In this document: piece by piece, positions 2 through 59,099 of the stretch | How the letters are laid out: each line of letters begins with the position of its first letter | Numbering within the stretch: position 1 is the stretch's first letter | NCBI GenBank assembly: GCA_964403695.1 | Contig: CAYOHF010000001.1 | Span: 38,181-102,180 of the forward strand | Direction: 5' to 3' | Source: an uncultured Woeseiaceae bacterium | GTDB lineage: Bacteria > Pseudomonadota > Gammaproteobacteria > Steroidobacterales > Woeseiaceae | Length of the DNA: 64,000 bases | Made by a program: the position numbers and the translations under genes | The notes under the pieces: model-generated | What the model was told of the DNA's origin: nothing | Seen by the model: only the letters and a program-made list of their open reading frames with translations | Databases searched by the model: none

Positions 2-193
2 GGCGAGAACCTGGGCTTCGATGCTGATGACAATGCGGTTGAAGTGTATTGGCGTGACGGTGAACACTCATTCCCGATAGCAACGAAGTCTGCTTTAGCC
101 GATGACCTCATCAAGTTGGTTTCTGAACGTTATCTGGAAAAACTAACGGCGGCGACGCAAACAGCATTGCCCGCCATTGCAGTCAGGGACTAA
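2..193 (+). CDS. coaBC: 3' end of bifunctional phosphopantothenoylcysteine decarboxylase/synthetase (CoaBC/Dfp), truncated by the window edge
   Basis: Frame 2 is open from the window edge to TAA at 191-193 ([44 protein letters not shown]...). This resembles the C-terminal tail of E. coli Dfp. coaBC-dut adjacency is the classical gammaproteobacterial arrangement. Confidence 0.7.
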
Positions 194-35975: not shown

Positions 35976-35989
35976 GGCCTAAAAATTCC

Positions 35990-42300: not shown

Positions 42301-42320
42301 ACTCGTTCCATATAGCCAGG

Positions 42321-43121
42321 CTATTTAACTGCCCACAGTATCAGGGCGAAAATAATTGCCAGTAGCGGCCCCACCACGAATGGCCACCAACGTGCGTTCA
42401 TGACCCGCCACAAATGGCCGAGTCCTTTTGCATCTTTGAATTCAATAATTATGACACTAGTGTTGTCGCGACCGCCATTAGTGATGGCCGCATCGACGAG
42501 TTCATCGACGGCCGACTGCACATGTTCACAGGATGCCAGTATTTCCGCGATTTCTGAATCTTCAAGTTCACCGTTCAGGCCATCGCTGCAGAGCAATATC
42601 CAGTCACCATAACGCAGTGGAACCTCTGTAATTGACGGCATCGGCTCACCGAGCCCCAGTGTTTGCGTGACCAGGTTGCCGCGCGGGTCCGCACGAATCT
42701 GTTCCTCGGTCAGGATATTTTGCGCGCGCAATAATTCATGGAAGGAATGATCGCGGGAAATTTGTGACAGGTCCTTTTTGCGCCACAAGTAGGCACGACT
42801 ATCGCCGACCCAGGATATCTCCGCCAGGTTATCCGCCAGTTTTGCGACAACAATGGTTGTGCCCATGCCTGACAGCGACTGGTCCTTGTCGGCGGCAGCG
42901 ATAATTGCCTCATGGGCGCCAACAATTTGTTCTTCCGTGGATTTATCCGGTGCAGGTTCGAGCAGGCTTTTGCTGGCGGTCTCGCTGGCGGTCTTGCCAT
43001 TGACGTGACCGCCCATTCCATCAGCGACAAACCAGAGTTTGCGCTCCTCATCCCAGCCGATCGAGTCCTCATTCTCGCCACCGCGGCTGCCGACGTCAGT
43101 TTTGGCTGCAAAATTAAGCAT
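42321..43121 (-). CDS. PP2C-family Ser/Thr protein phosphatase with a C-terminal TM anchor
   Basis: TDVGSRGGENEDS, FVADGMGGHVNG, GMGTT, LLCSDGL and GGRDNTSVI are PP2C motifs. The C-terminal helix is WWPFVVGPLLAIIFALILWAV. Confidence 0.88.
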   Translation of the reverse strand: MLNFAAKTDVGSRGGENEDSIGWDEERKLWFVADGMGGHVNGKTASETASKSLLEPAPDKSTEEQIVGAHEAIIAAADKDQSLSGMGTTIVVAKLADNLAEISWVGDSRAYLWRKKDLSQISRDHSFHELLRAQNILTEEQIRADPRGNLVTQTLGLGEPMPSITEVPLRYGDWILLCSDGLNGELEDSEIAEILASCEHVQSAVDELVDAAITNGGRDNTSVIIIEFKDAKGLGHLWRVMNARWWPFVVGPLLAIIFALILWAVK

Positions 43122-43124
43122 CGC

Positions 43125-44441
43125 TCAGAACTGTCCCTGCACGTCTTGTGCGGTTCGGCTGAAAGACGAAGGATTGAATGTCGAATCGTTTTCGACCTCT
43201 TTATATATTCGGTCGAGTGCAGCAGTTTTTTGTTGCCTGTCGCCCAGCGTGTAACTCAGGCTTTCAAGCCCAAGGTACAACTGTTCCGCTGCATTGAAGT
43301 CGTTCATATTTCCACCTGCTGCAGATTGTATGAGTGCACGTCGAACCGCAACAATAGTGTTCTTGTCGAACGGTCGAGTCGACCACTCACTCTTGCGGGT
43401 TTCAAGCCAGGTAATGAGTGCCCGGCTTGTTTGCCGGACACTCGCAATATTTTCCTGGCCTGAACGAACAAACGCAGCAGTGGCAGCGGTCATCTCTGTC
43501 TGTGCAGAGGTCGATTCAATAGTGCCGACGACGGTTTGCAGAATGATCAGGTGCTGATCCTGCAGCCGCGGTGAACCTGGCAATACACCAGGACCAGCTC
43601 GAGCCGGCGTCCAGCGTTTGTCATCCATTTCATGGTGACATCCGTGGCAGTCATATAGTGCGAGTTCCGGGTACAAGCCTTCATTGGGAACAAGCCTTTG
43701 CCCGACAAGATCGAGATAACGGCGAGCGGCTTCAACCTGGCCGGTGAGCCACAAATTGAACCCCGGTATCTCTCCTTTGCGTTGACGATAGTCTTCGTCA
43801 ACGTCGTAGTGAGCCGGCTGGTTGGTTGTGAACGCCTCCAGTTCAAAACTGAGTCGCGGGTGACCGGCACCCATGATGTCGTGACTGGCAAACTTTTCGG
43901 CCGTTCCCATGTGGCATGACAAACACAGCTCTGCCCGGTCGCCCGGTTTTTCGGTCGGATACATTCCTCGCGCAAGGTTGTCGGCGTGCGTTGCTCCTTC
44001 CGCTGCGTGACTCTTGATCCATTCTTCGGCACCACCGTGACAGGCCTCGCAGCCAACGCCATCACTAAGCTGAAACTTGGGGCCACGTTTTTCCCTTGCG
44101 ACGTTGTCCGTATGGCAATCGAGACAAACTTTTGCGGTAGTGGCGCTGCCGAGGCCAAGATAGTCCGCAATCCGTTTCGATTCGTCACTTGTCAGGGTGC
44201 GATACGCCTGCGAGTGTTTGTCGGCACTGGTCCAGATGCGATATTCGTTCAACCAGACATTGATGTCTTTTTGCCGATCCAGTTTTCCGTGACAAACACT
44301 ACTTGCACAACTAGCGGGGCCTAAGTGTATGTTTTGGTTAATTAATGTTTCATCTGCGAATACATTTTCAGCACTTACAGACAGTGCTGCAATCAAGCAC
44401 AGCAGTCGGCAAGTGGCCGTTTTGTAAGTCGCAGCATTCAT
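43125..44441 (-). CDS. periplasmic multihaem c-type cytochrome (cytochrome c554-like family)
   Basis: Signal peptide. Four CXXCH motifs (CLDCH, CEACH, CLSCH, CHGCH) plus one CX4CH (CASSVCH). The segment W.....DKHSQAY is typical of c554-like proteins. Confidence 0.8.
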   Translation of the reverse strand: MNAATYKTATCRLLCLIAALSVSAENVFADETLINQNIHLGPASCASSVCHGKLDRQKDINVWLNEYRIWTSADKHSQAYRTLTSDESKRIADYLGLGSATTAKVCLDCHTDNVAREKRGPKFQLSDGVGCEACHGGAEEWIKSHAAEGATHADNLARGMYPTEKPGDRAELCLSCHMGTAEKFASHDIMGAGHPRLSFELEAFTTNQPAHYDVDEDYRQRKGEIPGFNLWLTGQVEAARRYLDLVGQRLVPNEGLYPELALYDCHGCHHEMDDKRWTPARAGPGVLPGSPRLQDQHLIILQTVVGTIESTSAQTEMTAATAAFVRSGQENIASVRQTSRALITWLETRKSEWSTRPFDKNTIVAVRRALIQSAAGGNMNDFNAAEQLYLGLESLSYTLGDRQQKTAALDRIYKEVENDSTFNPSSFSRTAQDVQGQF

Positions 44442-44446
44442 TTCAT

Positions 44447-47400
44447 TTACTCACCAGCATCGGTCGTCGCGACATCTTCTGGCGCAGTTTCTTTTGCCGC
44501 GTCGTCAACAAACCATGGTTTCCCTGACTCGTCGAGATACAGGCGGCGCATTTCTTCGAGATTCAATGGTCGCGAACCACGTCTGCCGAACACGGCAACC
44601 TGGCCACCAGTTTCGTCAACGCCGCGATCACGTTCAAGGCCGCGCGACAAACTCAATGCCGTCTTCGACGTCTCGTAACTCGCAATGAGGTCAGGCACAG
44701 GCTCCGGACTAAAGCCATAGAACTTCGGCTGCAGATCCGGTGACGTAAGCTGCACTATCTTAATGCCATTTGCGCCATCGGCAACGTAAGCGAATAACGA
44801 TGCGTTGGTTGTTGCAACAACCACATCGCGTGCATCGTTCAATGCACCGTTTGCATCGAACCGGGTGAGCTCAACCAACGCTTCTGGTCGTTCTGCATCC
44901 ACGATAACCAAGCCGTCCGCTCCCGCAGCAATATAGGCATAAGTTCTGGCGACGAATACCTTGTGCGCATTTGAGAGCGCGATCGTGTTGTTTTCGATCA
45001 GCCTCGCGGAGCCAGGATCGGTGACGTCAATGACGCTAAGCCCTGCACCTGAAGTCACAAACAAATAGCGAAACTGCAATACGCTGGCTCTTGCGTCGTC
45101 CAACGCCACCGTCGCGATCAGTTCCGGGTGTAGTGGATCGTCGACACTAATAATTTTTACGCCGCTATCGGTTGTGATGTAAAGGTAGTAACCACCAACC
45201 GTAATGTGCCGTGCACCATTTAGTACGCCATCGGGGTTCCAGCTTAGCGCGCGCTCCAGGTCATTATTGCGTGGCTCACCATCGACCAGTGTGTTGACAT
45301 TGACCAGGATCAGCCCTTCTTCTGCGTCGATGATAAACGCGTAGTCGTAAAGCGGGTGTATTACCTGCTCGAGGTTATCTATCCGCATGAGGTCGCCCTC
45401 ATTGCGCGCCGGATTGATGTTCTGGTTGGTTGGCAGCGCAACACAGGTCGCGTTCTTCGTCTTGATATGGGTGTCCTGTCCTACCGCACTAAATGGTGAT
45501 GAGATGATGCGTTGGGATATGCCTTTATTGGCGATGCCCGCAACGTCATAGACATTGAACCCTTTCTTGCCTTCCGCCACGTACAGATACTCGCCACGTA
45601 ATTGCAGGCACTGCGCCGTGCCTGCGCCGTGCTGATAGGCTTCTTCGAGCTCAGCACCATTATCTAAGTGCTTCTGATAGAAATCCGGATACGCGTAGCG
45701 ATGCAGGTAGCTGCCAATGACCGCCTGCGGCTCTTCCCACTCGGTCACTGTTACCGCGGAAATTTCTCCCTGCCCGCCGACATAAGCATTGAAACCGATG
45801 AAATTGACGAAGTTGGTTCCCTGCGCCAGCAGTTGCGCCATGATGGCATTGTTATCGTTTTCACCCGAGAGATGGCAATCGACACAGGTCTTGGTCTCCG
45901 TCTTGCGTGCCGTATGCGGAAAATGCGGATTAAATGCCTGCGAACTGAAGCCGCTCGCTGAAATCGGTGGCTGCTGCACGTAAATTCTTTCGCGATTTGA
46001 ATTGGTTGAAGACAACACGAGTGCCGAGCTCGAGCGCACTGGCGCTATCTTGCCGCTTTTCGCTTCGCCGCGGCGACCGATGAGGAACATCTGGTCACGT
46101 GCAACCTGTGGATTGTAGGTGGCATAGTTTCTGGATTCGCCACCTTCATAGTGATGGCGGTCTGTCTTCCAGTTCGCCTCAATTGGTAAGTGACAACCAC
46201 CACAACTCGTGGTCCATGACGTATGGCAGGTGTAACACTCGATTTCGTCATTGGAGTGCGCGAGATTATCGGTCGACACATTGGTGCCCCATAGTTGGGT
46301 ACCGGTGTCCTTGCTCATGAGTTTCGCCCGGGCCGCTTTTTCGTTGTAATTCTCATGTCCCGGCGTAACCGAGTCTTTCACCAGGCTGAGTTGCCATTCC
46401 AGTTCCGGGTCGAGCATCGAGCGCTGATACAAAACGTCATTTTGCCATTCGAAGCGGCGTCTGCCGTCGGGCGTACGCAACGCTTCCAGATCAGCACCGC
46501 CGGATAGTGCAGCTGGCCCCGACGTATAAAGGTTTGGATACGACTGCGCGGTACCGTGACAATCTTTGCAATCGACCTCGACCGCGAGCGCTACTTCGCC
46601 GTAGATATGCCCGTTGCCGTGGTTGTCCTGCGAGAAATGACAGTCCACGCAGTGCATGCCGACATCCACATGGATCGACGACATGTGTACTGCCTTGGCG
46701 AATTTTTCCGGGTCCTCATCGCTGACGACTGCACCCTCATCGTCAAGCAGATTTCCTTTCCTGTCGCGCTTGAAAACCGCACGGAAATTCCAGCCATGGC
46801 CATGGTAGTCGGCGAACTGCGTGTCGTTGAGCTCGGAATTCATCTCCGAAACCCGTTTCAGAAATTCGACATCTGCCCAGTTGCCACGCACAGCAGCACC
46901 TTCCGGATTGCGGTCGAGGATTTCACGCTGTTCCGCAATCGTAGGGTACTGTTGTTCCTCCGGCCACATGGCCGGCGCATCCGATTCGTAATCCCACATC
47001 GTGTAGCCGAGGTAGCTGTTCATGAACATGTTCGGCTGATGCATGTGACAAACCATGCACTGGCTGGTCGGTACCGCGCGGGTAAATGTATGTTTCAACG
47101 GATGGCCCGACTCGTCCTTGTTGATGGTCGGATCTACAGTCTGGGTTTTGCCTTCATGACCGAACTGCGCATATACGCCGGAGTGGCGCGGATCGCGGTC
47201 GTTTGCGTAAACGCTGTGACACGATGAGCAACCGGACTGACGATAGTCGCCCGGCTGGTCGTTGGTGCCCATAAACCAGGTGAACGGATCGTTAAGCCGT
47301 GTCTTGGTAATGTTAATCAGAGGCACTGATATGCGTCCCCCCGTTCCCGGTCCACGATTGGATTGGCGAAAGTCCGGCCGGCCCGGTTCTTCGATGCGCT

Positions 47401-48247
47401 GCAACTGGCCGAGGGCATTTGGCAGGCCGGTTTCCGGGAACAGGTTGCTTATGTTGCGGCCACCACGTTCAAAGACCCTGAAAATGTCGCCAGGTTTGAC
47501 GGATTCCCACACCGGCAATGGGTATAAGGCCGGAATAATGCCGGCATCCAGCAGCGCTTGCTTGTGTGCGTCTGCCACGGTTGGTCCATGCAGGATGACC
47601 GGGTTACCATCCTCATCGTACGACTCGCCGAGGATGTAATTCTTGAAAGGCAGAATGCCGTTGTTATAGGCGGCACCGCCCCACAACATTGCGCCCGTCG
47701 CATGCATGCTGCGTATCGAAGCTTCAATTGTCGATTGATGACATGCGCCGCAAGCGTCATTCGCAACGCGGTAGTCCGATGGATTCATGAAGCGAACAAA
47801 CTCACGGCTTTCGCGATTCAGCAACGTATAAGTTCGCTCCGGGTTGGCACTGTGTGGCAGATGCCATGATTCCGGGTACAACGGCAACACGTGTGCTTGT
47901 TCGACTGCCGCCGCGTAATCCGGGCTGCCATGCGTAGTGCCGACGCTAATGGATACTGCGGCATTACCGCCATGGCAATCCGTGCAACCGAGTTGTACAG
48001 CAGGGCTAACATGCATGGACTTGCTGTCGGTCTCCGTGTGACAGGACAAACAACCCCCACTTTTCGCATCTGCGTCGGCTACGGTCTGGTTGGCTGGCGC
48101 CGGGGGCGTCTCTGCATAATCGCGCTTGACCGGTTTTTCACCTTCTGCGGCCGACGCGATCAGGGCGGAAAACAAAACTGACGCCAGTACAAAAGTGCAA
48201 ACCTGCAGCGACATTTTCGGCACACGTTTCATTATTGATCTTTTCAT
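44447..48247 (-). CDS. 1266-aa decahaem c-type cytochrome fused to a C-terminal LVIVD-repeat beta-propeller
   Basis: Signal peptide. Ten CXXCH motifs (CLSCH, CTDCH, CGACH, CSSCH, CMVCH, CVDCH, CKDCH, CYTCH, CGGCH, CVDCH) lie in the first about 830 aa. Six LVIVD-type repeats follow (YLYVAEGKKGFNVYDV, YAFIIDAEEGLILVNV, YLYITTDSGVKIISVDDP, YLFVTSGAGLSVIDVTDP, YAYIAAGADGLVIVDAERP, FAYVADGANGIKIVQLTSP). Confidence 0.85.
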   Translation of the reverse strand: MKRSIMKRVPKMSLQVCTFVLASVLFSALIASAAEGEKPVKRDYAETPPAPANQTVADADAKSGGCLSCHTETDSKSMHVSPAVQLGCTDCHGGNAAVSISVGTTHGSPDYAAAVEQAHVLPLYPESWHLPHSANPERTYTLLNRESREFVRFMNPSDYRVANDACGACHQSTIEASIRSMHATGAMLWGGAAYNNGILPFKNYILGESYDEDGNPVILHGPTVADAHKQALLDAGIIPALYPLPVWESVKPGDIFRVFERGGRNISNLFPETGLPNALGQLQRIEEPGRPDFRQSNRGPGTGGRISVPLINITKTRLNDPFTWFMGTNDQPGDYRQSGCSSCHSVYANDRDPRHSGVYAQFGHEGKTQTVDPTINKDESGHPLKHTFTRAVPTSQCMVCHMHQPNMFMNSYLGYTMWDYESDAPAMWPEEQQYPTIAEQREILDRNPEGAAVRGNWADVEFLKRVSEMNSELNDTQFADYHGHGWNFRAVFKRDRKGNLLDDEGAVVSDEDPEKFAKAVHMSSIHVDVGMHCVDCHFSQDNHGNGHIYGEVALAVEVDCKDCHGTAQSYPNLYTSGPAALSGGADLEALRTPDGRRRFEWQNDVLYQRSMLDPELEWQLSLVKDSVTPGHENYNEKAARAKLMSKDTGTQLWGTNVSTDNLAHSNDEIECYTCHTSWTTSCGGCHLPIEANWKTDRHHYEGGESRNYATYNPQVARDQMFLIGRRGEAKSGKIAPVRSSSALVLSSTNSNRERIYVQQPPISASGFSSQAFNPHFPHTARKTETKTCVDCHLSGENDNNAIMAQLLAQGTNFVNFIGFNAYVGGQGEISAVTVTEWEEPQAVIGSYLHRYAYPDFYQKHLDNGAELEEAYQHGAGTAQCLQLRGEYLYVAEGKKGFNVYDVAGIANKGISQRIISSPFSAVGQDTHIKTKNATCVALPTNQNINPARNEGDLMRIDNLEQVIHPLYDYAFIIDAEEGLILVNVNTLVDGEPRNNDLERALSWNPDGVLNGARHITVGGYYLYITTDSGVKIISVDDPLHPELIATVALDDARASVLQFRYLFVTSGAGLSVIDVTDPGSARLIENNTIALSNAHKVFVARTYAYIAAGADGLVIVDAERPEALVELTRFDANGALNDARDVVVATTNASLFAYVADGANGIKIVQLTSPDLQPKFYGFSPEPVPDLIASYETSKTALSLSRGLERDRGVDETGGQVAVFGRRGSRPLNLEEMRRLYLDESGKPWFVDDAAKETAPEDVATTDAGE

Positions 48248-48262
48248 AATTACACCAGCACT

Positions 48263-50140
48263 CTAGTAAGCCAGCACGAGATTCAGGAGGAAATAACCGG
48301 CGTCTTCATCCGGAAACAGGTCATCGAAGCCATCCTCGGCAATGAGTTGTGCGTACGAGGCACGAACTACAATGTTCTGTGACATGAGCGGTCGGTAGGT
48401 CAGCGACGCAGAAACATCATGACCAATGTGATCGTCGATCTCGGCTTGGTTGCGCGCCGCTTCCAGCACCTCGGTATGTACGAAAAAGAGGCTATTGAAG
48501 TTAAGCGACAAGCGCAGTTTTGGTGTCAGGTCCATGTCCGCACCAAGGCCGACAAGAATGACGCCCGGGTTGGTGAAGTTCGACTGCCCCTGTTCCTTGG
48601 AGGAACGCAAGCTATTCAATACGCCGTTACGACTCGACAATGCGACCCGACCACCACCGATCAGCGGTACAGCCTGACGAATCCAGTAGCTGGTGTCGGC
48701 ACCGGCGAACTGCGGGTTTTCGAAAATCGCGTCAAAACCTGTCGCTTTGTCGTCATACGGATCATCGTCGCCACTACCGTACAGTGCCGAAATGCGTGGC
48801 CGGAACCAGTCAAAGTCCATCGAAAACTCGAGCGCCGCGAAGCCTGCGCTAATTTCCACATCGTCGTCGACAAAAACGCCCGGTGAGATATCACCAAACG
48901 CGTAGTACAGGGACGTCGACATATTCAGGCGCCCAAAATGGCCATCGCCGCTGTAACCGACATAATAAACGTCGTAGTCACGCGGCGTTTCCCGGCCAAA
49001 CGATGCGGGCCTCTGGATGAAGTCGTTTTCATCGAAAAACGACCCCGACCCTTCCCGGTTGCGGTTATAGACAATGGTCGCCTGTGAGGTAAATCCGCGT
49101 ACCGGCATGTCCTGCCAGTAAAGGTTGGCAACGAATACATCATCGTCGCGTATATCCTCACTAACGTCATTCAGGCCACTGTTGGTATCTTTTTCAAGGC
49201 GCCGGAACCACGCGAGGTTGTACTGGAAGATATTGTTGTTCCGGGTGCCGAACAGGCGTACGCCCAGCTGGTTGTCCTGGAAAAGAAAACCGCGAAAATC
49301 GGAAGAGAACGGCTGGATGCCGATACGGATACTGTCGAAATCGTAACGTTCCGATACGTTGCGCAGATGTTTGTCGAAGAAGGCAGCCTGTATACCGACG
49401 TGATTGTCGCTGCGTGTCGTACCGTTTACCGGATTTGCGTTAAGGCCAAGAACTTCATCGATCGACGCATAATTGAAATTGAATACTGGCGTGAAACGAA
49501 ACTCATAGTCAGGTGGTCGGAATACGGTGTCGCCTTTGTAGTAGACAAACTCCGTTGCGAGGTTCTCGACCAGCGCATATTGATCGGCGCTGCCGAAAAC
49601 ATCGATACTGCCTGGCGCATTGGTGCTGCTGCCGCCAACCGGCGTAGGCACTTCGCGGACCTCGTAGACTGAATCCGAAATTATCGTAATGTTGAAAAAT
49701 TTGTCGTCCTTGACCGGCCTGTCGGCCTTGAGGATGTTGCGGTTGTACGGATCCCATATACTTTCGGTGTAGCCAATCGCATCGACTATGCGCCAGCGAT
49801 CGGGCAATGGCACAGAAGACACATAGTCGTTCATGCCTGGTCGTGGCACGGGTGAGGCAGCGTTTCTCGTTCGCTCCGGTCGACCGGCCTGCTCGCGTGT
49901 ATCAAGCGTCAGGTCTGCCCTGCGGCTTGCATCGGACACTTCCGGCGCCGCTGCGGCGTCCTCACCTGCCTGCGGTGCAGCTGGTGCAGGGCAGGGAACC
50001 TCGCTGTATCCGGGTCGGCGGCGGGTAACGATTCGACCATCGTCATCCTGGTAGCAGGTCTCCTGCGCGAGCGCACTCGGTGCTGCGATAAAGCTACTGC
50101 CGGTCGCTATGATGGCTGCTGCGAGAATGCGGTGAATCAT
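48263..50140 (-). CDS. large predicted outer-membrane beta-barrel protein
   Basis: Signal peptide from MIHRILAAAIIATGSSFIAAPSALA. A Pro/Ala-rich linker is followed by about 500 aa with alternating hydrophobic beta-strand periodicity rich in Y/F/G/D/N. The C-terminus is ...YFLLNLVLAY (terminal aromatic). The track start at 50290 would overlap the upstream gene. Confidence 0.6.
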   Translation of the reverse strand: MIHRILAAAIIATGSSFIAAPSALAQETCYQDDDGRIVTRRRPGYSEVPCPAPAAPQAGEDAAAAPEVSDASRRADLTLDTREQAGRPERTRNAASPVPRPGMNDYVSSVPLPDRWRIVDAIGYTESIWDPYNRNILKADRPVKDDKFFNITIISDSVYEVREVPTPVGGSSTNAPGSIDVFGSADQYALVENLATEFVYYKGDTVFRPPDYEFRFTPVFNFNYASIDEVLGLNANPVNGTTRSDNHVGIQAAFFDKHLRNVSERYDFDSIRIGIQPFSSDFRGFLFQDNQLGVRLFGTRNNNIFQYNLAWFRRLEKDTNSGLNDVSEDIRDDDVFVANLYWQDMPVRGFTSQATIVYNRNREGSGSFFDENDFIQRPASFGRETPRDYDVYYVGYSGDGHFGRLNMSTSLYYAFGDISPGVFVDDDVEISAGFAALEFSMDFDWFRPRISALYGSGDDDPYDDKATGFDAIFENPQFAGADTSYWIRQAVPLIGGGRVALSSRNGVLNSLRSSKEQGQSNFTNPGVILVGLGADMDLTPKLRLSLNFNSLFFVHTEVLEAARNQAEIDDHIGHDVSASLTYRPLMSQNIVVRASYAQLIAEDGFDDLFPDEDAGYFLLNLVLAY

Positions 50141-50177
50141 TTTGCAGTTGCCGAGCTCAAGGTTCATTCCGGCCCCC

Positions 50178-52229
50178 CTATTTCGCGTCGCAGACATTGT
50201 CGTCTCCCGTCGCAATAAATGGTGCTTGCGGACATTGCACGTAGCGCAAGCGAACGCCCTGCGGTGTGAGATTGTCCGCACGCCGGTCAATCGGCGCGTT
50301 ACCGACGCCGTTACCGAGTTCCAGACCTGCGTTGTGCAGTCCGAGGAAAGAAATCATGTCGTCCTGGTCGATACCGTCGCCGGATACGCCGATACCACCT
50401 ACCAACGTACCATTTCGATAAATGGGCACACTACCGGGGAAGATCTGCAGGCCATTGCCGACGCGGTTGTTCGTAACAGTCGGGGCGAAGGTCAGGGTAT
50501 TGGGATCAACCAGTTCAACGCCGGCGCAGATCGGCCCGACATCGGCAGCGATAATGCCAGCAGCAAAAAGTACATGCTGCAATACGGCGTTGTATGAGAC
50601 GTCCAGTTGCAGCCCGGTAGAAAACGGGCTCCACTGTCCTGCGGCTTTGCTCAACGGACCCGCTCCGTTGGTATCAATGCCATCCGGGTAGTAAGGCCGC
50701 GACAGGTTGCCGCCGGCACGGTCCGAAAAAGCTACCAGCCCATTGGTCAGTGCATCGGGGTCGCCGAGAAAAGCCTGCAGTGCAGTAACGTAGTCATCGA
50801 TTACAACCGGCAGTGAGAACGCCGGACCAGCATCGCTTGTCGTCAGGTAGCTGACGTCCGGCAGTGCGGTGAGAAAATCCGCTGCGGTCGCGGATGAGAA
50901 AAAAGTTGCTGTACGCGCTTTTTGTAATGAAACGTCGGCACCGAATACCGGCGCGTCGCGACTACGCACCATGCCAAGAATTTCACCCTCGGTGTCGACG
51001 ACTGAAATCGTAACTCGTGCAAAAGTGCTTAATGGCTGGCGAATTTGCGCGCGGGCCCGGGTCGCTACGTCGAGCGCATTGCGCAAGATTGTTGTTACGT
51101 CATTCTGCGTCAGTTCATCGCCTGCGAGCGCCGCGCCATCCGTGCCACCAATCGGCGGATAACGGGGTGTTCCTGCTGAATCGACAAAAACGAACGCATC
51201 CAGGCCGGGAAACAGGTTGGCAGCATCTGGTGCTATGCCAGAGGCGTTTGTGCCAAAAAGTGTTCCGTCACGAATAACACCATCGGTGTAACCGACCACG
51301 CTAAGCAAGGCGCCGGTCGCAACCGGAAGCGTGGCAAAGGCGGGCGCAGATGCCGGATCACTTGCGAGGTCTGAAAATCCAACATCACTAAAACGAAACG
51401 TCTTGCCCTCGACGGTAATCTGGTCGCCACGCCGGTCCTGCGGTGCGGCAAAGCCGAAGGTCGCAGCATAGGCGATCATTTCGTCAGCATCGCGGTCACT
51501 GTCGGTTATGACCGGATCAGCTCCGTAAACGCCATCGGCGATAACGCCGACGCCACCGACCACGGTGCCATCTTTATACAGCGGGAAGCCACCCGGATCC
51601 GCCGCCAGGCCCAGCGGTGATCTGTGAGGGCCTGCACTGACGCCAATACCGTCAAATGGCTGGGTAAAATCGGAACAAGCCAGCTGGCTGAACTGGACGC
51701 CAAACAAGGGTCCGCCAGGTTGAAACTGTTCTCCCGGATTGAAATGGTCCTGCACGATCTGGCTTGCGGTTCGGCTCGAAAACGCATTGCCCTCGGAGGA
51801 CAGGTAGGCACCGGTTACTGCTTTTGCGATTGCTGCGAGGTCATCCAGGTTTGCCGCAACCGGAGCAACCGGCAATAGGATGCCCTCCAGACCCGCGGTG
51901 ACCGGTGTCGCACCGCCGACGCCGGCTGTCGTTGATATCAGTACATCACGATTGGCGGCGTTGCCCATGCGATAAACCGCCAGGACATTGCCAACCCGGT
52001 CAACGACTGCCACGGTAGCTTCAACATTTTGTGCCTGTGCTTCGGCGACTGCTTGTGCAATTACCTGCTCGACATCGGCGACCAGCATTCCGGCAGCCGT
52101 CGCTGCACAATTGCCATCACAATTGTTTCCCGAATCGGTCCCCGCATCGCTACTGGTCGGGCTGCCACCCGAACACGCTGACAGAATAAGAATCCACAGA
52201 GGCAAAAACAGCTTATTGCGATTTTTCAT
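50178..52229 (-). CDS. lipoprotein with two GlcG/HbpS-like (DUF336, haem-binding-type) domains
   Basis: Lipobox LILSACSG. Two copies of the DUF336 pattern are present: (1) VAVVDRVGNVLAVYRM...GGFPLYKDGTVVGGVGVIADG; (2) ISVVDTEGEILGMVRSRDAP.FGADVSLQKARTA..F...GSVPIYRNGTLVGGIGVSGDGIDQDD. Confidence 0.7.
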   Translation of the reverse strand: MKNRNKLFLPLWILILSACSGGSPTSSDAGTDSGNNCDGNCAATAAGMLVADVEQVIAQAVAEAQAQNVEATVAVVDRVGNVLAVYRMGNAANRDVLISTTAGVGGATPVTAGLEGILLPVAPVAANLDDLAAIAKAVTGAYLSSEGNAFSSRTASQIVQDHFNPGEQFQPGGPLFGVQFSQLACSDFTQPFDGIGVSAGPHRSPLGLAADPGGFPLYKDGTVVGGVGVIADGVYGADPVITDSDRDADEMIAYAATFGFAAPQDRRGDQITVEGKTFRFSDVGFSDLASDPASAPAFATLPVATGALLSVVGYTDGVIRDGTLFGTNASGIAPDAANLFPGLDAFVFVDSAGTPRYPPIGGTDGAALAGDELTQNDVTTILRNALDVATRARAQIRQPLSTFARVTISVVDTEGEILGMVRSRDAPVFGADVSLQKARTATFFSSATAADFLTALPDVSYLTTSDAGPAFSLPVVIDDYVTALQAFLGDPDALTNGLVAFSDRAGGNLSRPYYPDGIDTNGAGPLSKAAGQWSPFSTGLQLDVSYNAVLQHVLFAAGIIAADVGPICAGVELVDPNTLTFAPTVTNNRVGNGLQIFPGSVPIYRNGTLVGGIGVSGDGIDQDDMISFLGLHNAGLELGNGVGNAPIDRRADNLTPQGVRLRYVQCPQAPFIATGDDNVCDAK

Positions 52230-53947
52230 GGCTGACTCGTTTCTATAGTGGCGGTGTAGTCACTGGCAAATGGATGATAGGAATGACAATCGATACAACT
52301 TGTCGTCACACGTTCCGGCGTTGGTTTATCGCTGTGGCATGCCAGGCAGGTATCGATGTCCGGAATAAGCAAATCGATGCTCTGCGACGATTGATCGGCG
52401 CCGTGACAAACCAGGCAAGCCGCGTCACCGGTCTTCTCATTCATTACCTGGTGGGAAAGGTGATCGAAGCGGCCCGCGGAAAAATAATCGGTGGCCAGTC
52501 GCACCGGGTGTACCTGGTAGCGCGCATAAATTTCACTGTTCACATGTTCCTCGACGATATGGCAGCTGACACACCCTCTTACCGTGAACTGCTCGCGAAT
52601 ATCCTCTGCCGCCGCCTGCGCTGCACAATTGAACGCGGTATCGACACACTCACGTGTGCTGTTGTCCTTATCGGGAATTCTGCGCCGTACGACGGCCTCC
52701 TGTGGCACGCTCGGATCGCTGAACTTACGCAAATACTGGCCCTCCAGCGCGAACATGACTTCTACCGGCTGACCATGTGGCAAGAGGCGATCCGGCATGG
52801 TCGGGTCAAACGTTAGTTCGTGACACTCAACACATTGCGTTTCCATTGTTATTGGCACGAAATGTTCCCGGTCCAGGGAAAGTTCGTGACAATTTCCGCA
52901 GCCAAGCGGGTTGCCATCGCGCAGGTCGGTAACCAGTTCTGCATCCAGGTGCGTGTCATGCGGAAACTTGAGGTTCGACATTTCTACCGCGTTGCTGACC
53001 GCTTCACTTTGTTCCTGCCACTCGAAAGACAGTCCGGTTCCGGCTCGACTGCTGACTGGTTTCAGCAACGTTGCGGCAAAAGCAGGATGATCGGTCTCGG
53101 AAAAACCTGATACCGACGCAATACTTCCGGCAACTGACAACTGATCGGAATCGATATGACAATCGGTACACAATGAATCCGCGCGAATGATCAGGTGTGG
53201 CTCGGGTTCATTGTGTTCCAGATGACAACTTGCACAGCGGGGCGTCGGCTCGAGTGTACTTATTGCCGCCATCGTGTCGGCATGCACATGATCATTGATG
53301 CGCTCGTGACAATTTAGGCAGGCTGTATCCTGCACGCGCTCGAAATTCTGCATGTGACACTGACGACAGTCATCGCCGATCGCAAGTGTATGTGCCGGAT
53401 GCAAAGGACCGCTGGTCCAGAATGCGTCGCTGGGAATCCAGGCCGTATCCGCAAAGCTGTCATCACCGCTACTTTTGAGAAACATTGGCAGCAGGAACGC
53501 GAGCACGATCAATAGACCCGAGATTGTCCAGGCGGCAGAGCGGATGGAGAACCAGGATTGGTAAAGGTCTGTGCGAAATGCGCTCTCGAAAACGCTGGCA
53601 TCGACATTCGCGTCGAGCTCGATCTGGATACCGTGGTCAAAACCCGCCGGTGCGTCTACGAGCATGAGCCGATTGCCACCGATTTCAATAACGTCCCCGG
53701 TTGACAGCGTTGCCGACGTAAGCTCTTCACCGTTGACCAAAACGTTGTAACCGCGGCGACATTTAATCGCCAGCCCGCCCGGCGCAGCCGTGAGCTCTGC
53801 ATGTTCCGCGCCGACGTTATTCCCCAGCACCTGGATCGAGCGGTCCGGGGCACTGCCGAGCGTAATCGTATCCGCGGAGACTTCGACATCGCGATATTCG
53901 GCAATGCCATCGGCGCTGGGTCTTATTTCTCTTAGCAGTACATCCAC
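52226..53947 (-). CDS. FHA-like domain / single TM / decahaem c-type cytochrome fusion protein
   Basis: The N-terminal about 100 aa have an FHA-like pattern (ITLGSAPDRSIQVL...GAEHAEL....GGLAI......VLVNGEEL....L..GDVIEIGGNRLML). The TM helix is WTISGLLIVLAFLLPMFL. Ten CXXCH motifs follow (CRQCH, CLNCH, CASCH, CTDCH, CGNCH, CVECH, CVSCH, CLVCH, CLACH, CIDCH). Confidence 0.8.
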   Translation of the reverse strand: MDVLLREIRPSADGIAEYRDVEVSADTITLGSAPDRSIQVLGNNVGAEHAELTAAPGGLAIKCRRGYNVLVNGEELTSATLSTGDVIEIGGNRLMLVDAPAGFDHGIQIELDANVDASVFESAFRTDLYQSWFSIRSAAWTISGLLIVLAFLLPMFLKSSGDDSFADTAWIPSDAFWTSGPLHPAHTLAIGDDCRQCHMQNFERVQDTACLNCHERINDHVHADTMAAISTLEPTPRCASCHLEHNEPEPHLIIRADSLCTDCHIDSDQLSVAGSIASVSGFSETDHPAFAATLLKPVSSRAGTGLSFEWQEQSEAVSNAVEMSNLKFPHDTHLDAELVTDLRDGNPLGCGNCHELSLDREHFVPITMETQCVECHELTFDPTMPDRLLPHGQPVEVMFALEGQYLRKFSDPSVPQEAVVRRRIPDKDNSTRECVDTAFNCAAQAAAEDIREQFTVRGCVSCHIVEEHVNSEIYARYQVHPVRLATDYFSAGRFDHLSHQVMNEKTGDAACLVCHGADQSSQSIDLLIPDIDTCLACHSDKPTPERVTTSCIDCHSYHPFASDYTATIETSQP

Positions 53948-53951
53948 GGCA

Positions 53952-54845
53952 TCACCAGTAAATGAACGTCGTGACGATATGAATCACGAGCGCTATGAGA
54001 AGTGCGACTGATATTGGGATATGAATCAGCAGCCAGATCCTGATCCGGCCACGCAGACGAATATCGTGAGAAACCCGGCGCAATACAGCCTGACGCCGGC
54101 AAAAAACTTCGAGAAGCTCCTGTAGTAATTCGGTTTCGGCAACTTTGTTGGTTTTCGGTAAGCGACCCGCAATGAAATCGATGACAGGTTGCTGGTCCCT
54201 GTTACTAACTGGCTTGCCACCGTCGGATCTCGCGCCGGACGATGGCCGTATAAAGAGTGACTGATCCTTGCCAACCAGTTGTGCGTATGCGCCACCGCCA
54301 ATTGCGGTGCGTTCTACGGCACTACGTACTGCCAGGTTGATGTCATCAGGACTTTTTGCGCCGAGTTCGCGGGCGCGATTGTCCAGTGAGAAAAGCTCCG
54401 CGAACAGTGCCGATCGCGACGACCCGGAGCGGTTGGCAGTCATCGAATGCGGGTAGTTGATATAGGTGTAAATGCCGTAGAAACCGCTAAAGATGACGAA
54501 ACACATCATCAGGTAGGCCAGCGAGTGCACGTTCCAGCCCAGCTGCCCGGCGCTGTGCAAAGTTGCGACGATAAGCAACGCAGTCCCGAGGTAAACATGG
54601 GCGGAAGTCCAGCCAGCCACCGAGCCAAGTGACGATGAGTAACTGCGTTTCCTGATGCCCAGCATCAGCAACCAGACAATAAGGAGCGCGCCAACAGTTC
54701 CCAGGACATACCCTTGCCAGGTGCCGCCATTCGCTGGCTGAAAGCCGCCCTGGGTCGAATAAAGTATTGCTGATATCACCACCAGCACCAGTGACCACCA
54801 CAAGTAGCGGTTGTTGGCGTAACGCAGAATGCCAACATGGATCAT
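53952..54845 (-). CDS. integral membrane protein with a di-haem-b-type His-X13-His pair on two helices
   Basis: About 5 TM helices. Helix 3 is SAHVYLGTALLIVATLHS and the last helix is LIHIPISVALLIALVIHI, each with two His exactly 14 positions apart. Its start overlaps the upstream oxidoreductase stop (ATGA at 54842-54845). Confidence 0.7.
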   Translation of the reverse strand: MIHVGILRYANNRYLWWSLVLVVISAILYSTQGGFQPANGGTWQGYVLGTVGALLIVWLLMLGIRKRSYSSSLGSVAGWTSAHVYLGTALLIVATLHSAGQLGWNVHSLAYLMMCFVIFSGFYGIYTYINYPHSMTANRSGSSRSALFAELFSLDNRARELGAKSPDDINLAVRSAVERTAIGGGAYAQLVGKDQSLFIRPSSGARSDGGKPVSNRDQQPVIDFIAGRLPKTNKVAETELLQELLEVFCRRQAVLRRVSHDIRLRGRIRIWLLIHIPISVALLIALVIHIVTTFIYW

Positions 54846-57397
54846 CGACGGCGTTCCTCGACCAGGTCAATAAATTGCGCAGGACCTATGCGCATTGCCG
54901 CACCGGTGGGGCATGCGGATACACAGGCCGGGCCACCTTTTTGCCCCACGCAGGCGTCGCACTTGGTGGCCTTCTTGCCTTTCTTTTTCGCCGCGTCTGA
55001 TACCTCGTAGTCGTCCTCCTGGCCAGGTCCGCTGCCGCTGCCAAACATCAGCCAACTGAACAAACCGGGTTTTGCCGGGGCGTCATAATTAAGGCTGATT
55101 ACCTTGTATGGACAATTGGCAACGCAGTTGCCGCAGCCGATGCAGGAGTCGTTGATATAAACCTCGCCACTCTCAGCCCTGCGAATGGCATTCGGCGGGC
55201 AGTCCTTCATGCAGTGCGGTTGCTCACAATGCCGGCAGGAAATTGGTATGTGCACTTCAGCTAACGTTGGGCCCTCTTTTCGGTTAAGCCTCGATATGCC
55301 GGCATGCGTTTCTGCACAGGCTTTTTCACAATTGTCACAACCAATACACAGTGACTCGTCAATGACGAGCACGTTGGTCGCCTCACCGAGACCCTCTGCC
55401 ATCAGGAATTCCATGACCAATCCCGATTCGGGTCGGACCGCCATGCGTGCTTTGTCAGTCACATTCTGGCTGACCGTTTCCTGGAGAACCTTTATCTGGC
55501 CCTCGTCCTTGCGCACCAACTCGATGAACTCCGGACGATTGACCTCAATAGTTTCGACGGCGACAGTCGCCCTGGCGGATTCGCGCCGGGTCGGATCACC
55601 CATGAGCGCCATGTCACCAATGCGCCGACCGCCGCGTACTTCACCAACCAGCACCGCTTCGCCATCGACCATGCGGGAGAGGGCGACACCGCCGGAGCGA
55701 ATGATGTGCAGGCTGTCACCTTGTTCACCTTCAGTGAAAATGATGTCGCCAGCCTTGAAACTGCAAACCTGCACCCGCGAACTGATGTTACGAAGTTCGG
55801 CAACGTTAGCGCGCGGGGCAAATTGTGCCTGCAACTCGCGGACCACAAATATCCACTCAATGCCTTCACGAACTGTATCGTTGGAGTTCATCAGTTTCAG
55901 CATCGTGCGGCGTGGGGACTCAACGACGATGCAACTTGCGCCGGCAACCGCCCGCTCCAGGCGTGGTCGCCCGGACAACAAACTCATCTCGCCGAAGAAT
56001 TCGCCACGCGACAGAGTTGTTTTATCAATGACACCAGCACCGTCTATGTCCCGTTCGAGAGAGACTTCGCCATCGACAATCGTGAAAAATGAGGTGCCGA
56101 ACTCGCCTTCCTCGTAAATTACATCGCCTTCGCGAATTACACGAGTCGTACGTGGCGGTTTGGTATTGGCGGCGAATTTTTCGGCAAGCAGATCGGCTTT
56201 TTTTCTTGCTTCCCCATACTCCGCACCATCGGGGTAGGAAACAATGATGTTGCTTTCGATAACCAGTTCCCTGAAGGCGAGAGCATTCAGCTCACCAAAC
56301 ATGGGTATGAGGCTTTGGAAGCGCTCGATCAGGTCGTCGACCTCGCGCTCATATGGCAAACCGTGAAACTGGTATTCGAGCAGCGGATGATCGGCTGGTT
56401 GTATGAAGTTGCCACCAATGAACTCGACCACGTCGTAGCCCTGGTTCATTGCCTGCTTGATCAGCGGATAACCGGCCAGTGAACCGATGATGTAAATACC
56501 GGGGCAATTGCTCTCGTAATGTCGTGACAGTTGCGGAATCGCATCGCGCTTGTTGCTGGGGAATTCCACGCCGATAGATTCAACAAATTTTCTCGGCGGG
56601 ATTGCGCCCAGTCGTGCAATGATCCGGTCGCAAGGCTGCTCGATCTCGCCCTCAGGCGTATCCAGTGTCGCAAGCAAAGCGTGTTCCGCACCATCGGTCT
56701 GTACGACCGATTTGATCGAAGTGGAATAGTGGCACTCGAGCCGTTCGTCGGGATTGCTGATAGCGGCAAGAATAGCGTTCAGGTTGCCCTCTTTTGCCCG
56801 GCTGAACTCATCGCGCCGGTTAAGGATCCAGACCTGGTTTTGCTCTGCCAGCGCAAGGGCATTTTCGATCGCCGCGTCACCGGCACCGACGACCAGAACC
56901 TTTTCTTCGTCATATTCTTTCGGGTCATCAAGCTGGTATTGCACCCGCGGCAAGTCCTGACCTTCGACGCCAAGCTTGCGCGGGTTTCCTTCCAGCCCGA
57001 TAGCCAGGACGACGGACTCTGCCACGATAGTAGAACCGTCAGTCAGCGCGATACTGAAATTGCCTTTGTCGCCCGTTATGCTTTTGACTTCTGCGCCAAA
57101 GCGAATATTGGCGCCGGTCTTTTGCAAATCCTCCTGCCATTGGCCGAGAATCTGTTCACGAGCACCGGCAGAAAAACGCATGTCGCTGCGCAGATCAAGA
57201 AAGCCAGGTTCGGCCATGACGTGCTTGCCTTTCTGGTATCGTTGCACGGTCTTGGCATGCACACCGAAACCTTCAAGGAGGATATGTGAAGGAGAGGCTG
57301 CGCCGGACTCAGCATCCAGTCGGGCAGCACGGCCTGCGGCACTCAGACCAGCCGGACCCGCACCAATAATGGCGATGCGATAGCTATCCGTCGCCAT
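54842..57397 (-). CDS. FAD/NAD(P)-binding oxidoreductase fused to two cyclic-nucleotide-binding domains and a C-terminal 4Fe-4S poly-ferredoxin
   Basis: Dinucleotide folds IAIIGAGPAGLSAA and VLVVGAGDAAIENA. Two cNMP-binding patterns (FFGEMSLLSGRPRLERAVA; IGDMALMGDPTRRESARA). Cys clusters CIGCDNCEKAC, CRHCEQPHCMKDCP, CIGCGNCVANCP and CDAC...CVSACP. No signal peptide. Confidence 0.85.
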   Translation of the reverse strand: MATDSYRIAIIGAGPAGLSAAGRAARLDAESGAASPSHILLEGFGVHAKTVQRYQKGKHVMAEPGFLDLRSDMRFSAGAREQILGQWQEDLQKTGANIRFGAEVKSITGDKGNFSIALTDGSTIVAESVVLAIGLEGNPRKLGVEGQDLPRVQYQLDDPKEYDEEKVLVVGAGDAAIENALALAEQNQVWILNRRDEFSRAKEGNLNAILAAISNPDERLECHYSTSIKSVVQTDGAEHALLATLDTPEGEIEQPCDRIIARLGAIPPRKFVESIGVEFPSNKRDAIPQLSRHYESNCPGIYIIGSLAGYPLIKQAMNQGYDVVEFIGGNFIQPADHPLLEYQFHGLPYEREVDDLIERFQSLIPMFGELNALAFRELVIESNIIVSYPDGAEYGEARKKADLLAEKFAANTKPPRTTRVIREGDVIYEEGEFGTSFFTIVDGEVSLERDIDGAGVIDKTTLSRGEFFGEMSLLSGRPRLERAVAGASCIVVESPRRTMLKLMNSNDTVREGIEWIFVVRELQAQFAPRANVAELRNISSRVQVCSFKAGDIIFTEGEQGDSLHIIRSGGVALSRMVDGEAVLVGEVRGGRRIGDMALMGDPTRRESARATVAVETIEVNRPEFIELVRKDEGQIKVLQETVSQNVTDKARMAVRPESGLVMEFLMAEGLGEATNVLVIDESLCIGCDNCEKACAETHAGISRLNRKEGPTLAEVHIPISCRHCEQPHCMKDCPPNAIRRAESGEVYINDSCIGCGNCVANCPYKVISLNYDAPAKPGLFSWLMFGSGSGPGQEDDYEVSDAAKKKGKKATKCDACVGQKGGPACVSACPTGAAMRIGPAQFIDLVEERRR

Positions 57398-57444
57398 CAG
57401 CTAATCCGTTTAGCATTGCCCGACCCCCCCCAGGACCACCTAAT

Positions 57445-58968: not shown

Positions 58969-59099
58969 TGCCCCTACACCCCTGATTTTCTAATTATTAT
59001 TCGAGTCAGTTACTTGCGCGTTTGTGTTGCAAGTACTGCAAATTTCTTATTCCTGGGCCTGGCTATCTGCAACCCCCGATCAACTACCGCTATTTCTTT

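Follow-up and report, generated by a model that had tools for sequence, protein, structure and literature searches.

In a 64,000-nucleotide stretch of DNA from an uncultured Woeseiaceae bacterium (Gammaproteobacteria; GenBank assembly GCA_964403695.1, contig CAYOHF010000001.1, positions 38,181 to 102,180 of the forward strand), it was found that two coupled genes head a nine-gene cluster lying entirely on the minus strand. The whole stretch is called the window, and its own numbering is used throughout. Gene A (54842..57397) encodes a protein of 851 amino acids (aa) composed of a cytoplasmic module for flavin adenine dinucleotide (FAD) and reduced nicotinamide adenine dinucleotide phosphate (NADPH), two cyclic-nucleotide-monophosphate (cNMP)-binding domains (CNB domains), and a ferredoxin-like domain for four [4Fe-4S] clusters, as judged from its open reading frame (ORF), Pfam, NCBIfam, PDB sequence matches, Foldseek, and motifs. 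Gene B (53952..54845) encodes a 297-aa protein with five transmembrane (TM) segments, which the ORF, the AF2 model, and conservation predict to be a di-haem cytochrome b of a published motif class ("IMP"). The genes downstream of A-B are called C to I, in order. Gene C (52226..53947) encodes a 573-aa protein that has a cytoplasmic FHA-fold domain, one TM helix (residues 133-162), and a periplasmic decahaem cytochrome c with 10 CXXCH motifs (Pfam FHA, Yop-YscD_cpl, and cytochrome c3/c7). I propose, with a probability of roughly 0.55, that A, B, and C constitute a three-subunit transmembrane electron-transfer module that is fed by NADPH and passes electrons outward directly, without the quinone pool.

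Coupling of the A and B Genes

The junction of the two genes reads ...CGT CGA TGA TCC, in which the ATG start codon of B overlaps with the TGA stop codon of A (a 4-nt ATGA overlap). An earlier note, made from the sequence alone, had reported an 851-aa protein whose gene shares ATGA with the next one, and reading the minus-strand ORFs and their junction confirmed this. In about 70 of the 74 informative loci, A lies directly upstream of B. The 4-nt overlap recurs in 19 of 68 loci, and the A stop codon and the B start codon are 20 nt or less apart in about two-thirds of them. The gap between B and C is typically 2-12 nt across loci. Moreover, a representative search retrieved P0380, a 1,110-aa protein in which an A-like part (flavin module, two CNB domains, and FeS domain) is fused in frame to a B-like membrane domain. 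P0380 may be a natural A+B fusion or may reflect a lost stop codon. In Oceanospirillum beijerinckii, the annotation joins an Fe-S gene and an IMP gene into a single gene (He et al. 2017, PMC5566968). The overlapping stop and start codons, the near-universal adjacency, and the fusion argue for a physical complex of A and B. A promoter/terminator scan of 41000-59500 found sites no more numerous, or fewer, than in shuffled sequences, and the operon boundaries were set by gene spacing only.

Modules of Protein A

The conservation of protein A was assessed with 66 orthologues of 45-69% identity taken from genome loci. The flavin module (residues 6-320; 56438..57382, on the minus strand like all the features below) has two dinucleotide folds, with a GAGPAG motif for FAD and a bipartite NADPH motif, GAGDAAIENA plus NRRDEFSRAK (Pyr_redox_2, E 9.6e-28; Pfam assigns Pyr_redox_2/3 domains). 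Both the FAD motif and the NADPH motif (GAGDaAIENA ... NRxxEFxRaK) are kept among the orthologues. I take the latter to resemble the HRRDxFRA 2′-phosphate motif of E. coli thioredoxin reductase. The module has no CxxC motif; within residues 1-400, Cys occurs only at C222, C256, and C298, and C222 alone is conserved. Thus, it is not a disulfide reductase. The candidate assignment to thioredoxin-disulfide reductases was ruled out by the lack of a redox-active CxxC and by a TIGR01292 score of 67.5 against a cutoff of 343.

The mean pLDDT (predicted local distance difference test) of the AF2 model of A is 71.8; its flavin and CNB parts are confident, while the FeS part, modelled without cofactors, is poor. 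The best Foldseek matches were thioredoxin-reductase (TrxR)-type ferredoxin/flavodoxin-NADP+ reductases (FNRs) and YpdA/Bdr (6gas, 6gar, 8c3m, 3lzw, 3ab1, 5ygq, and 7a7b; E 1e-20 to 1e-21). Among these reductases are Bacillus cereus FNR1/2, B. subtilis YumC, and the enzymes of Chlorobaculum and Rhodopseudomonas. YpdA/Bdr scores as well as the TrxR-type FNRs for the flavin module, and both subtypes fit. Sub-threshold NCBIfam similarities point to YpdA, thioredoxin reductase, ArrB, AegA, NrfC, DmsB, and HybA. There is no signal peptide, and the FAD beta-alpha-beta motif stands right at the start of the protein; therefore, A is cytoplasmic.

Behind the flavin module, cNMP_binding (PF00027) matches A in two stretches (E 8.1e-34; 115.9 bits against a cutoff of 27.5). 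CNB domain 1 (residues ~418-504; 55886..56146) was identified by Pfam, NCBIfam, and alignment with PKA/PKG, and contains the phosphate cassette FFGEMSLLSGRPRLERA. Its GE...PR is in register with PKA/PKG, and G.FFGEmsL.SGR.R is kept across the orthologues. CNB domain 2 (residues 546-631; 55505..55762; the best Pfam stretch, also aligned with PKA) contains the cassette IGDMALMGDPTRRESARA. Here the window protein has GD...TR, with Asp in place of the usual Glu in this organism, and the consensus of the orthologues is GEmalmG...R; the Asp is read as a local substitution. Thus, the cassettes keep Gly-Glu...Arg family-wide, as the earlier assignment of two cNMP-binding domains would have it.

The C-terminal part (residues 677-850; 54848..55369) carries four Cys motifs: C684/687/690/694, C721/724/729/733, C752/755/758/762, and C813/816/825/829. 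It belongs to the Fer4 dicluster families and matches PF13247, and all 16 Cys residues are conserved in 65-66 of the 66 orthologues. The best solved relative is HycB of formate hydrogenlyase (7z0s_B, E 5.6e-18), followed by 7qv7_A (E 4.1e-16), and weak NCBIfam echoes of HmcB, DsrO, and FDH-beta were also seen. The domain hidden Markov models thus bear out the four-part make-up of A in the earlier note: a thioredoxin-reductase-like module, two CNB domains, and the Cys clusters.

To judge from the sequence of protein A, a cytoplasmic NADPH-FAD module and its own FeS partner appear to be joined in one chain, with the two CNB domains between them. The B. cereus and B. subtilis FNRs named above and YpdA/Bdr give the best matches of residues 1-340 in both sequence and fold (6gas, 6gar, 3lzw, and 7a7b). 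As in the TrxR-type FNRs, there is no redox-active CxxC, and FeS proteins are the natural partners of such FNRs. Unlike these enzymes, A carries its FeS partner in cis, downstream of the two CNB domains, and is coupled to a predicted membrane cytochrome.

Histidine Pairs of Protein B

Protein B has five membrane helices at roughly residues 9-30, 43-65, 76-98, 106-129(+), and 267-296, according to hydropathy and AF2 secondary structure (pLDDT of the model, 76.6), and a basic insert of roughly 135 residues precedes TM5. TM3 (residues 79-99; 54549..54611) contains W79-x3-H83-x13-H97, and TM5 (residues 268-297; 53955..54044) contains W271-x3-H275-x13-H289. Thus, the pairs H83/H97 and H275/H289 are each 14 positions apart. 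TM4 contains S120-G121-F-Y-G124 (SGxxG; 54474..54488). Five TM segments and two His pairs of this spacing had been noticed earlier, and both were confirmed. The conservation of the four His, which the earlier reading depended on, is complete among 69 relatives of 31-60% identity. The TM5 motif is likewise invariant (69/69 at every position), W79 is found in 68 of the 69, and in the SGxxG motif the Ser/Thr is kept in 68/69 and the two Gly in 69/69. In a wider set of 123 representatives (median identity 37%), the four His are 92-100% conserved, and the exceptions are nearly all gaps in truncated sequences. The family is large: a word-indexed search gave at least 1,479 matches, and an exhaustive profile search gave 2,200 representatives at the 50% identity level. 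In shuffled B sequences, two HX13H pairs arose in 1.2% of cases, and two WX3HX13H motifs arose in 0 of 200,000.

Positive-inside analysis places the N-terminus and the basic loops 65-78 and 130-267 in the cytoplasm, and the loops 33-42 and 100-105, which have no positive charge, in the periplasm. Thus, TM3 and TM5 run parallel from inside to outside, with H83/H275 near the cytoplasm and H97/H289 near the periplasm. His pairs at matched depths on parallel helices are predicted to provide the geometry needed for two stacked bis-His haems. Fourteen helix residues span about 21 Å, a distance comparable to the haem spacing in cytochrome b.

A fifth His, H107 (54525-54527), and N105 (54531-54533) lie at the periplasmic start of TM4 (GWNVH) and are ~98% conserved family-wide, as strongly as the four presumed haem ligands. 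These residues could be a contact or electron-exit site towards cytochrome C, or a ligand of something else.

A Published Motif Class and Related Clusters

Porin-cytochrome clusters (PCCs) of the types PCC3 and PCC4 each hold a hypothetical inner-membrane protein (IMP) of ~300 aa with five TM segments, SGXXG on TM4, and WX3HX13H on TM3 and TM5 (He et al. 2017, PMC5566968). The IMP was proposed to bind two b haems and to react with quinone, namely, to be a quinone-active cytochrome b. The IMP gene of PCC4 subgroup II is directly preceded by an Fe-S (pfam13247) gene (PMC5566968). Protein B has the size, the five TM segments, and both kinds of motifs of the IMP, each motif being 98-100% conserved. 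The gene context also agrees, since multihaem cytochromes c and the porin-like protein E are encoded in the cluster and A, which carries PF13247, is directly upstream. By these features, B is assigned to the IMP class; the match is one of motifs.

Classic PCC4 clusters encode 4-, 5-, and 10-haem periplasmic cytochromes (PMC5566968), whereas two of the proteins encoded in the window cluster are decahaem proteins, one of them bearing a beta-propeller, and the cluster also includes PP2C/FHA genes and the gene for an HbpS-like lipoprotein. A counterpart was also described in metagenome-assembled genomes (MAGs) from karst. In the "group 1" PCC of that survey, a large decahaem gene stands beside a gene for a porin of ~20 strands, and 7 of the 11 cases have a gene for a "ferredoxin-NADP+ reductase" in the vicinity; its hosts are mostly Gammaproteobacteria and Acidobacteriota (FEMS Microbiol Ecol 2026, PMC13264449). 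The group 1 PCC is this cluster, in which F, E, and A match the decahaem protein, the porin, and the reductase, respectively. The survey is descriptive only, without an analysis of the membrane protein, the cNMP domains, the FeS domain, the A-B coupling, or the regulators.

In the main text of He et al. (PMC5566968), the words "cyclic" and "FAD" occur 0 times each, and neither an NAD(P)H input nor cyclic-nucleotide domains are described. In the searchable literature, no description was found of the cNMP/FAD/FeS protein, of cNMP gating, or of a direct NADPH input. As far as that literature shows, three features are new. First, the upstream "Fe-S gene" appears to encode a complete protein with NADPH, flavin, and FeS modules and a conserved pair of cNMP-binding domains. 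Second, A-B-C is a portable triad of closely coupled genes, and this implies an input that does not depend on quinone. Third, PP2C/FHA regulators accompany the module.

Distribution and Variants of the Gene Order

The distribution of B was assessed by a pattern scan with one genome per species, which gave at least 599 matching genomes, mostly gammaproteobacterial. The best 80 of them were examined for gene order. Among these 80, the order A-B-C-D-E-F(-G) is conserved. The hosts are Steroidobacteraceae, Halieaceae, Lysobacterales, Arenicella, Granulosicoccus, Alcanivorax, Thalassolituus, Wenzhouxiangella, Nevskiaceae, and one Myxococcales MAG. The window cluster is most closely related to one on a JGI metagenome contig (Ga0164315_10000134, locus L086; 88-94% protein identity), and the best species-representative match for B is from Steroidobacter flavus (59% identity). 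In public records, none of the Steroidobacter orthologues has an annotation more specific than a generic one or "hypothetical".

Two loci (L117 and L119) have a different order of G-like, A, B, and C, beside further cytochromes. In L119, two c554-like genes and a multihaem cytochrome gene are followed by A, B, and the FHA-decahaem gene, and this variant fits the description of PCC4 by He et al. The PCC4 IMPs of He et al. come from Zetaproteobacteria, Hyphomicrobium, and Oceanospirillum. In a homologue search with the B-like protein of L119, no Zetaproteobacteria or Hyphomicrobium were among the named matches, and these taxa and Oceanospirillum were likewise absent from the named matches of the genome scan. 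The first gene of L119 (1908-4022), upstream of the cytochromes, encodes Pyr_redox_2 fused to AIR-synthase-related (SelD/ThiL-like) domains. Its product may belong to the "other redox-active proteins" described for PCC4.

A marine Rhodospirillaceae (alphaproteobacterial) MAG has only A-B-C and a divergent c554-like gene, with no porin and no F. In four Rhodanobacteraceae/Lysobacterales loci, B-C-D is found without A upstream, and one of them (L042) has rimO at that place. Thus, A-B-C is a portable core, to which D-E-F are lineage-specific additions, and A is a near-universal but not obligatory neighbour.

Quinol or NADPH as the Electron Donor

The IMP proposal of He et al. leads to the main rival reading of the locus, which I regard as rather unlikely. 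Protein B would be a quinone-reactive di-haem cytochrome b like FdnI, HyaC, and the cytochrome b of bc1, and it would connect the quinone pool with the multihaem cytochromes of the periplasm. A would then be an accessory, either as a regulated NADPH:quinone reductase acting via B or as a second, optional input.

The family tests of B bear on this question. The window protein has no Pfam or NCBIfam match at threshold; Ni_hydr_CYTB (PF01292) reaches 12.9 bits against a cutoff of 30.1. When the 69 relatives were scanned one by one, Ni_hydr_CYTB was weakly detected in 59 (best E 3.8e-8), DUF4405 in 21, and Ferric_reduct (PF01794) below threshold in 8 (best E 1.9e-4); Ferric_reduct has no match in the window protein. 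A few relatives carry a precomputed PF01292 match. This is a weak but consistent signal of a di-haem cytochrome-b family, which also favours the di-haem role of B in the NADPH-fed module, and it is confined to PF01292, DUF4405, and Ferric_reduct, as the quinone model would expect. The profile of B gave no hhalign match to E. coli CybB or MsrQ. The alignments to Ferric_reduct, b561, and FdnI families suggested in the earlier note yielded weak signals, none of them at threshold for the window protein.

Several observations weigh against an NADPH-fed module that bypasses the quinone pool. PF01292, the nearest family in Pfam, comprises quinone-reactive cytochromes b. In hhalign, B matched FdnI over 23 residues (FdnI 152-174), a match not significant by itself (E 0.07); it placed the TM5 pair H275/H289 on FdnI H155/H169, which would suit a di-haem cytochrome b in either model. 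When the B model was compared with the PDB by Foldseek, nothing reached E <= 0.001, the top hits being unrelated helical proteins, and sequence and profile searches of the PDB with B alignments gave nothing meaningful. In CNB domain 1, the cassette Arg is followed by Leu-Glu, where PKA/PKG have Ala, Ser, or Thr, and the ligands of bacterial CNB domains need not be cNMPs. Most of the hosts are aerobes. Finally, four loci have B-C-D without A, and PCC3 and PCC4 subgroup I have a protein of the same motif class without an Fe-S gene (PMC5566968). Given these A-less loci and clusters, a different donor, in the simplest case quinol, can evidently serve B.

On the other side, the quinone model has to accommodate the near-universal adjacency of A and B, their overlapping stop and start codons, and the fusion, which point to a physical A-B complex; the portable core, moreover, is A-B-C. 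The large conserved cytoplasmic loop of B suits the docking of a soluble partner, and no quinone-site motif is identifiable in B. The His ligands of B are distributed 2+2 on two helices, as opposed to 1+1+2 in FdnI/HyaC-type proteins.

Proposed Route of Electrons

In the NADPH-fed module that I prefer, A would oxidise NAD(P)H, probably NADPH, at its TrxR-type ferredoxin-NADP+ reductase module. Electrons would run along the four [4Fe-4S] clusters of the C-terminal HycB-like domain and enter two bis-His b haems held between TM3 and TM5 of B, the first ligated by H83 and H275 on the cytoplasmic side and the second by H97 and H289 on the periplasmic side. The basic 135-residue cytoplasmic loop of B would be the docking place for A. 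The exit would be the membrane-anchored periplasmic decahaem cytochrome C; since C is encoded next to B, electrons have somewhere to go. In this organism, they may travel onward via the c554-like G, the HbpS-like D, the porin-like E, and the decahaem/beta-propeller protein F to an outer-membrane or extracellular acceptor. The CNB domains, placed between the flavin and FeS modules, could gate the inter-domain electron transfer and make the flux responsive to a cyclic nucleotide, and the PP2C phosphatase H and the double-FHA protein I would add a phospho-threonine layer. Outward transfer would be electrogenic and assisted by the membrane potential, bypassing the quinone pool. In NADPH oxidases (NOX), the outward movement of electrons is likewise electrogenic and helped by the membrane potential. 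A bolder statement, which I make tentatively, is that the cluster represents an unrecognised class of redox export: a cyclic-nucleotide-gated, quinone-independent NADPH dehydrogenase wired via FeS clusters and a di-haem protein to a porin-cytochrome conduit. Such a class would extend over hundreds of Gammaproteobacteria, most of them aerobic.

Electrons might instead flow inward. TrxR-type FNRs and FeS chains are reversible in principle, and the architecturally similar Tmc/Hmc complexes carry electrons inward. Moreover, related PCC3/PCC4 clusters were found in Fe(II) oxidisers, and inward flow was drawn for them (PMC5566968). In this scheme, Fe(II), Mn(II), or reduced humics would be oxidised by the cytochromes, and the electrons would pass through B to the FeS clusters and FAD of A and on to NAD(P)+. 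Reduction of NADP+ (about -320 mV) from Fe(II)-type donors would be uphill and against the membrane potential, and the cluster has no energy-coupling subunit. The hosts found are mostly heterotrophs (Steroidobacter, Halioglobus, Alcanivorax, and Dokdonella), and the 2026 survey inferred electron export in heterotrophic MAGs (PMC13264449). Inward flow is thus considered improbable, and the outward direction is kept for the NADPH-fed module.

Likeness to Known Systems

By analogy, A-B-C would work like a split NOX or MsrQ-Fre and is laid out like Tmc/Hmc or NarH-NarI, while it is a member of none of them. In the NOX/ferric-reductase family, electrons move from cytoplasmic NAD(P)H via flavin to two stacked bis-His b haems, whose His pairs lie on TM3 and TM5 of a six-helix domain. 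In E. coli MsrQ-Fre, the flavin reductase is a separate protein and the acceptor is MsrP. A and B share with these systems the cytoplasmic NAD(P)H, the flavin, a predicted two-haem path, and His pairs on TM3 and TM5. On the other hand, B has five helices with the 135-residue loop before TM5, not six helices; the flavin module of A is of the two-Rossmann TrxR type, not an FNR-type dehydrogenase; two CNB domains and an FeS wire of four clusters stand in between; and the proposed acceptor is a multihaem cytochrome, not O2 or MsrP.

Membership of the NOX type was examined and rejected for B, which has five helices and no Ferric_reduct match at threshold, and for the A-B pair, as A has Pyr_redox_2/3 and a TrxR-type FNR fold without the FAD_binding_8/NAD_binding_6 module. 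The earlier note had pictured a split NOX-like NAD(P)H-to-periplasm electron pump. Its NAD(P)H/FAD/FeS identity of A and the coupling to B are supported; the NOX resemblance is reduced to an analogy, the word "pump" is not supported, and the nine-gene cluster and the motif class of He et al. had escaped it.

In Tmc/Hmc of sulfate reducers, NarH-NarI, and FdnH-FdnI, a multihaem cytochrome c, a di-haem cytochrome b, and a docked soluble FeS protein form successive layers. The same three-layer layout is predicted here, with weak NCBIfam similarity to TmcA for C and to HmcB, DsrO, and FDH-beta for A. In contrast, no NarI/HdrE-type or CCG-domain match was found for B or A in Pfam and NCBIfam, and B belongs to a different cytochrome-b family. 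The FeS part of A is HycB-like and fused to an NADPH flavoprotein with CNB domains, not of the CCG/HdrD type. The probable direction is also opposite to that of Tmc/Hmc, and the hosts are aerobic Gammaproteobacteria.

The known Gram-negative pathways of extracellular electron transfer draw from the quinone pool via CymA, ImcH, CbcL, or NapC/NirT-type proteins. If the proposed module is real, an NADPH-fed conduit via a flavo-FeS protein and a private di-haem wire would link metabolism to the outside in a different manner, uncoupled from the respiratory chain, electrogenic, and assisted by the membrane potential. Switching by a cyclic nucleotide and by Ser/Thr phosphorylation would be a control layer not seen in the quinone-fed pathways, and cells could dump or deploy cytoplasmic reducing power outside on a second-messenger signal. 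Possible uses would be Fe(III)/Mn(IV) reduction, production of an extracellular reductant or superoxide, and redox balancing. In function, it would be a modular prokaryotic equivalent of NOX, controlled by cNMP and phospho-Thr systems of its own. The species genomes that encode B number at least 599, come from soil, sediment, and sea water, and in many cases belong to aerobic heterotrophs that are not considered electroactive; with this spread, the module could matter for metal cycling and redox ecology. It also offers a concrete candidate function for the IMP flagged by He et al. (PMC5566968), and the compact A-B-C module could serve synthetic bioelectrochemistry.

Cytochromes, Regulators, and Neighbouring Genes

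The 10 haem motifs of C are found in 69 of 74 orthologues, and a weak NCBIfam echo of TmcA was obtained. The FHA-fold domain of C (residues 20-100) was aligned with the FHA domain of Rv1747, and Ser and Gly stand instead of the canonical phospho-threonine-binding Arg and Ser. The same domain also matches the family of YscD cytoplasmic domains of the type III secretion system. It may be a phospho-independent docking domain.

Gene D (50178..52229) encodes a 683-aa lipoprotein (lipobox LILSAC) with three HbpS/GlcG-like domains, which were detected as three HbpS-like stretches by Pfam and as weak EfgA/GlcG-like matches in the PDB. Gene E (48263..50140) encodes a porin-like outer-membrane protein of ~625 aa, counted from Met51 of the listed ORF, with an approximate start (NCBIfam porin, E 5e-6, weak). 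E has no haem motifs, and its C-terminal residue is Tyr or Phe in all 34 orthologues. Gene F (44447..48247) encodes a 1,266-aa secreted decahaem cytochrome c with a C-terminal LVIVD beta-propeller (Pfam), and 10 CXXCH motifs are present in 58 of 58 orthologues. Of all the proteins in the cluster, F varies least (60-76% identity across families), and a PDB sequence search with F found no relative. The constraint on F suggests an enzyme-like terminal reductase, not a passive wire. Gene G (43125..44441) encodes a 438-aa c554-like cytochrome with four CXXCH and one CX4CH (PDB cytochrome c554, E 0.0015, weak); the four CXXCH motifs are found in 30 of 31 orthologues.

The last two genes encode putative regulators. 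H (42321..43121) is a 266-aa PP2C phosphatase (Pfam PP2C_2 and PP2C), and I (41362..42300) is a 312-aa protein with two FHA domains (Pfam FHA, E 1.3e-34, two stretches), both of which look canonical by eye. Each protein has a C-terminal TM anchor. H and then I follow G in about 20 metagenome contigs of a set centred on G.

With so many conserved signalling parts in one cluster (two CNB domains in A, the FHA fold on C, PP2C H, and double-FHA I), A might be mainly a sensor. In that case, its CNB domains would read a nucleotide and its FAD/FeS module either oxygen or the NAD(P)H/NAD(P)+ ratio, and together with the FHA/PP2C proteins it would switch the B-C conduit conformationally. The apparent loss of the phospho-threonine-contacting residues in C, which suggests a docking role, would suit such a scheme. 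Nevertheless, the four invariant [4Fe-4S] motifs are typical of electron wires rather than sensors, and conservation is complete for the NADPH motif and the FNR-type fold. Sensing and electron donation can also coexist. A mainly sensory A is therefore judged highly improbable, and A is retained as the electron donor of the NADPH-fed module.

Directly upstream of A, a 507-aa autotransporter beta-barrel protein is encoded (57445-58968), followed further upstream by a 912-aa protein with Sel1 repeats, a long coiled coil, and a caspase (Peptidase_C14) domain (59100-61838). Several loci from Halieaceae and metagenomes (L022-L024, L054, L099, and L105) have weak homologues of both genes beside the cluster, which is not so in general. 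A few kb downstream of the cluster (33894-38203), two paralogous genes lie side by side; their large products, of 693 and 737 aa, are rich in TPRs and contain a membrane segment. An apparent winged-helix (CadC/OmpR-type) DNA-binding domain stands at the start of the second product, and the pair are read as membrane-tethered regulators. Farther away (15456-17941), HemY-like and HemX-like genes form part of a hemCDXY-type operon for haem biosynthesis, which is ordinary for Gammaproteobacteria. The cluster needs about 25 c-haems plus the b-haems per copy, and this gives the hem genes in the window some relevance.

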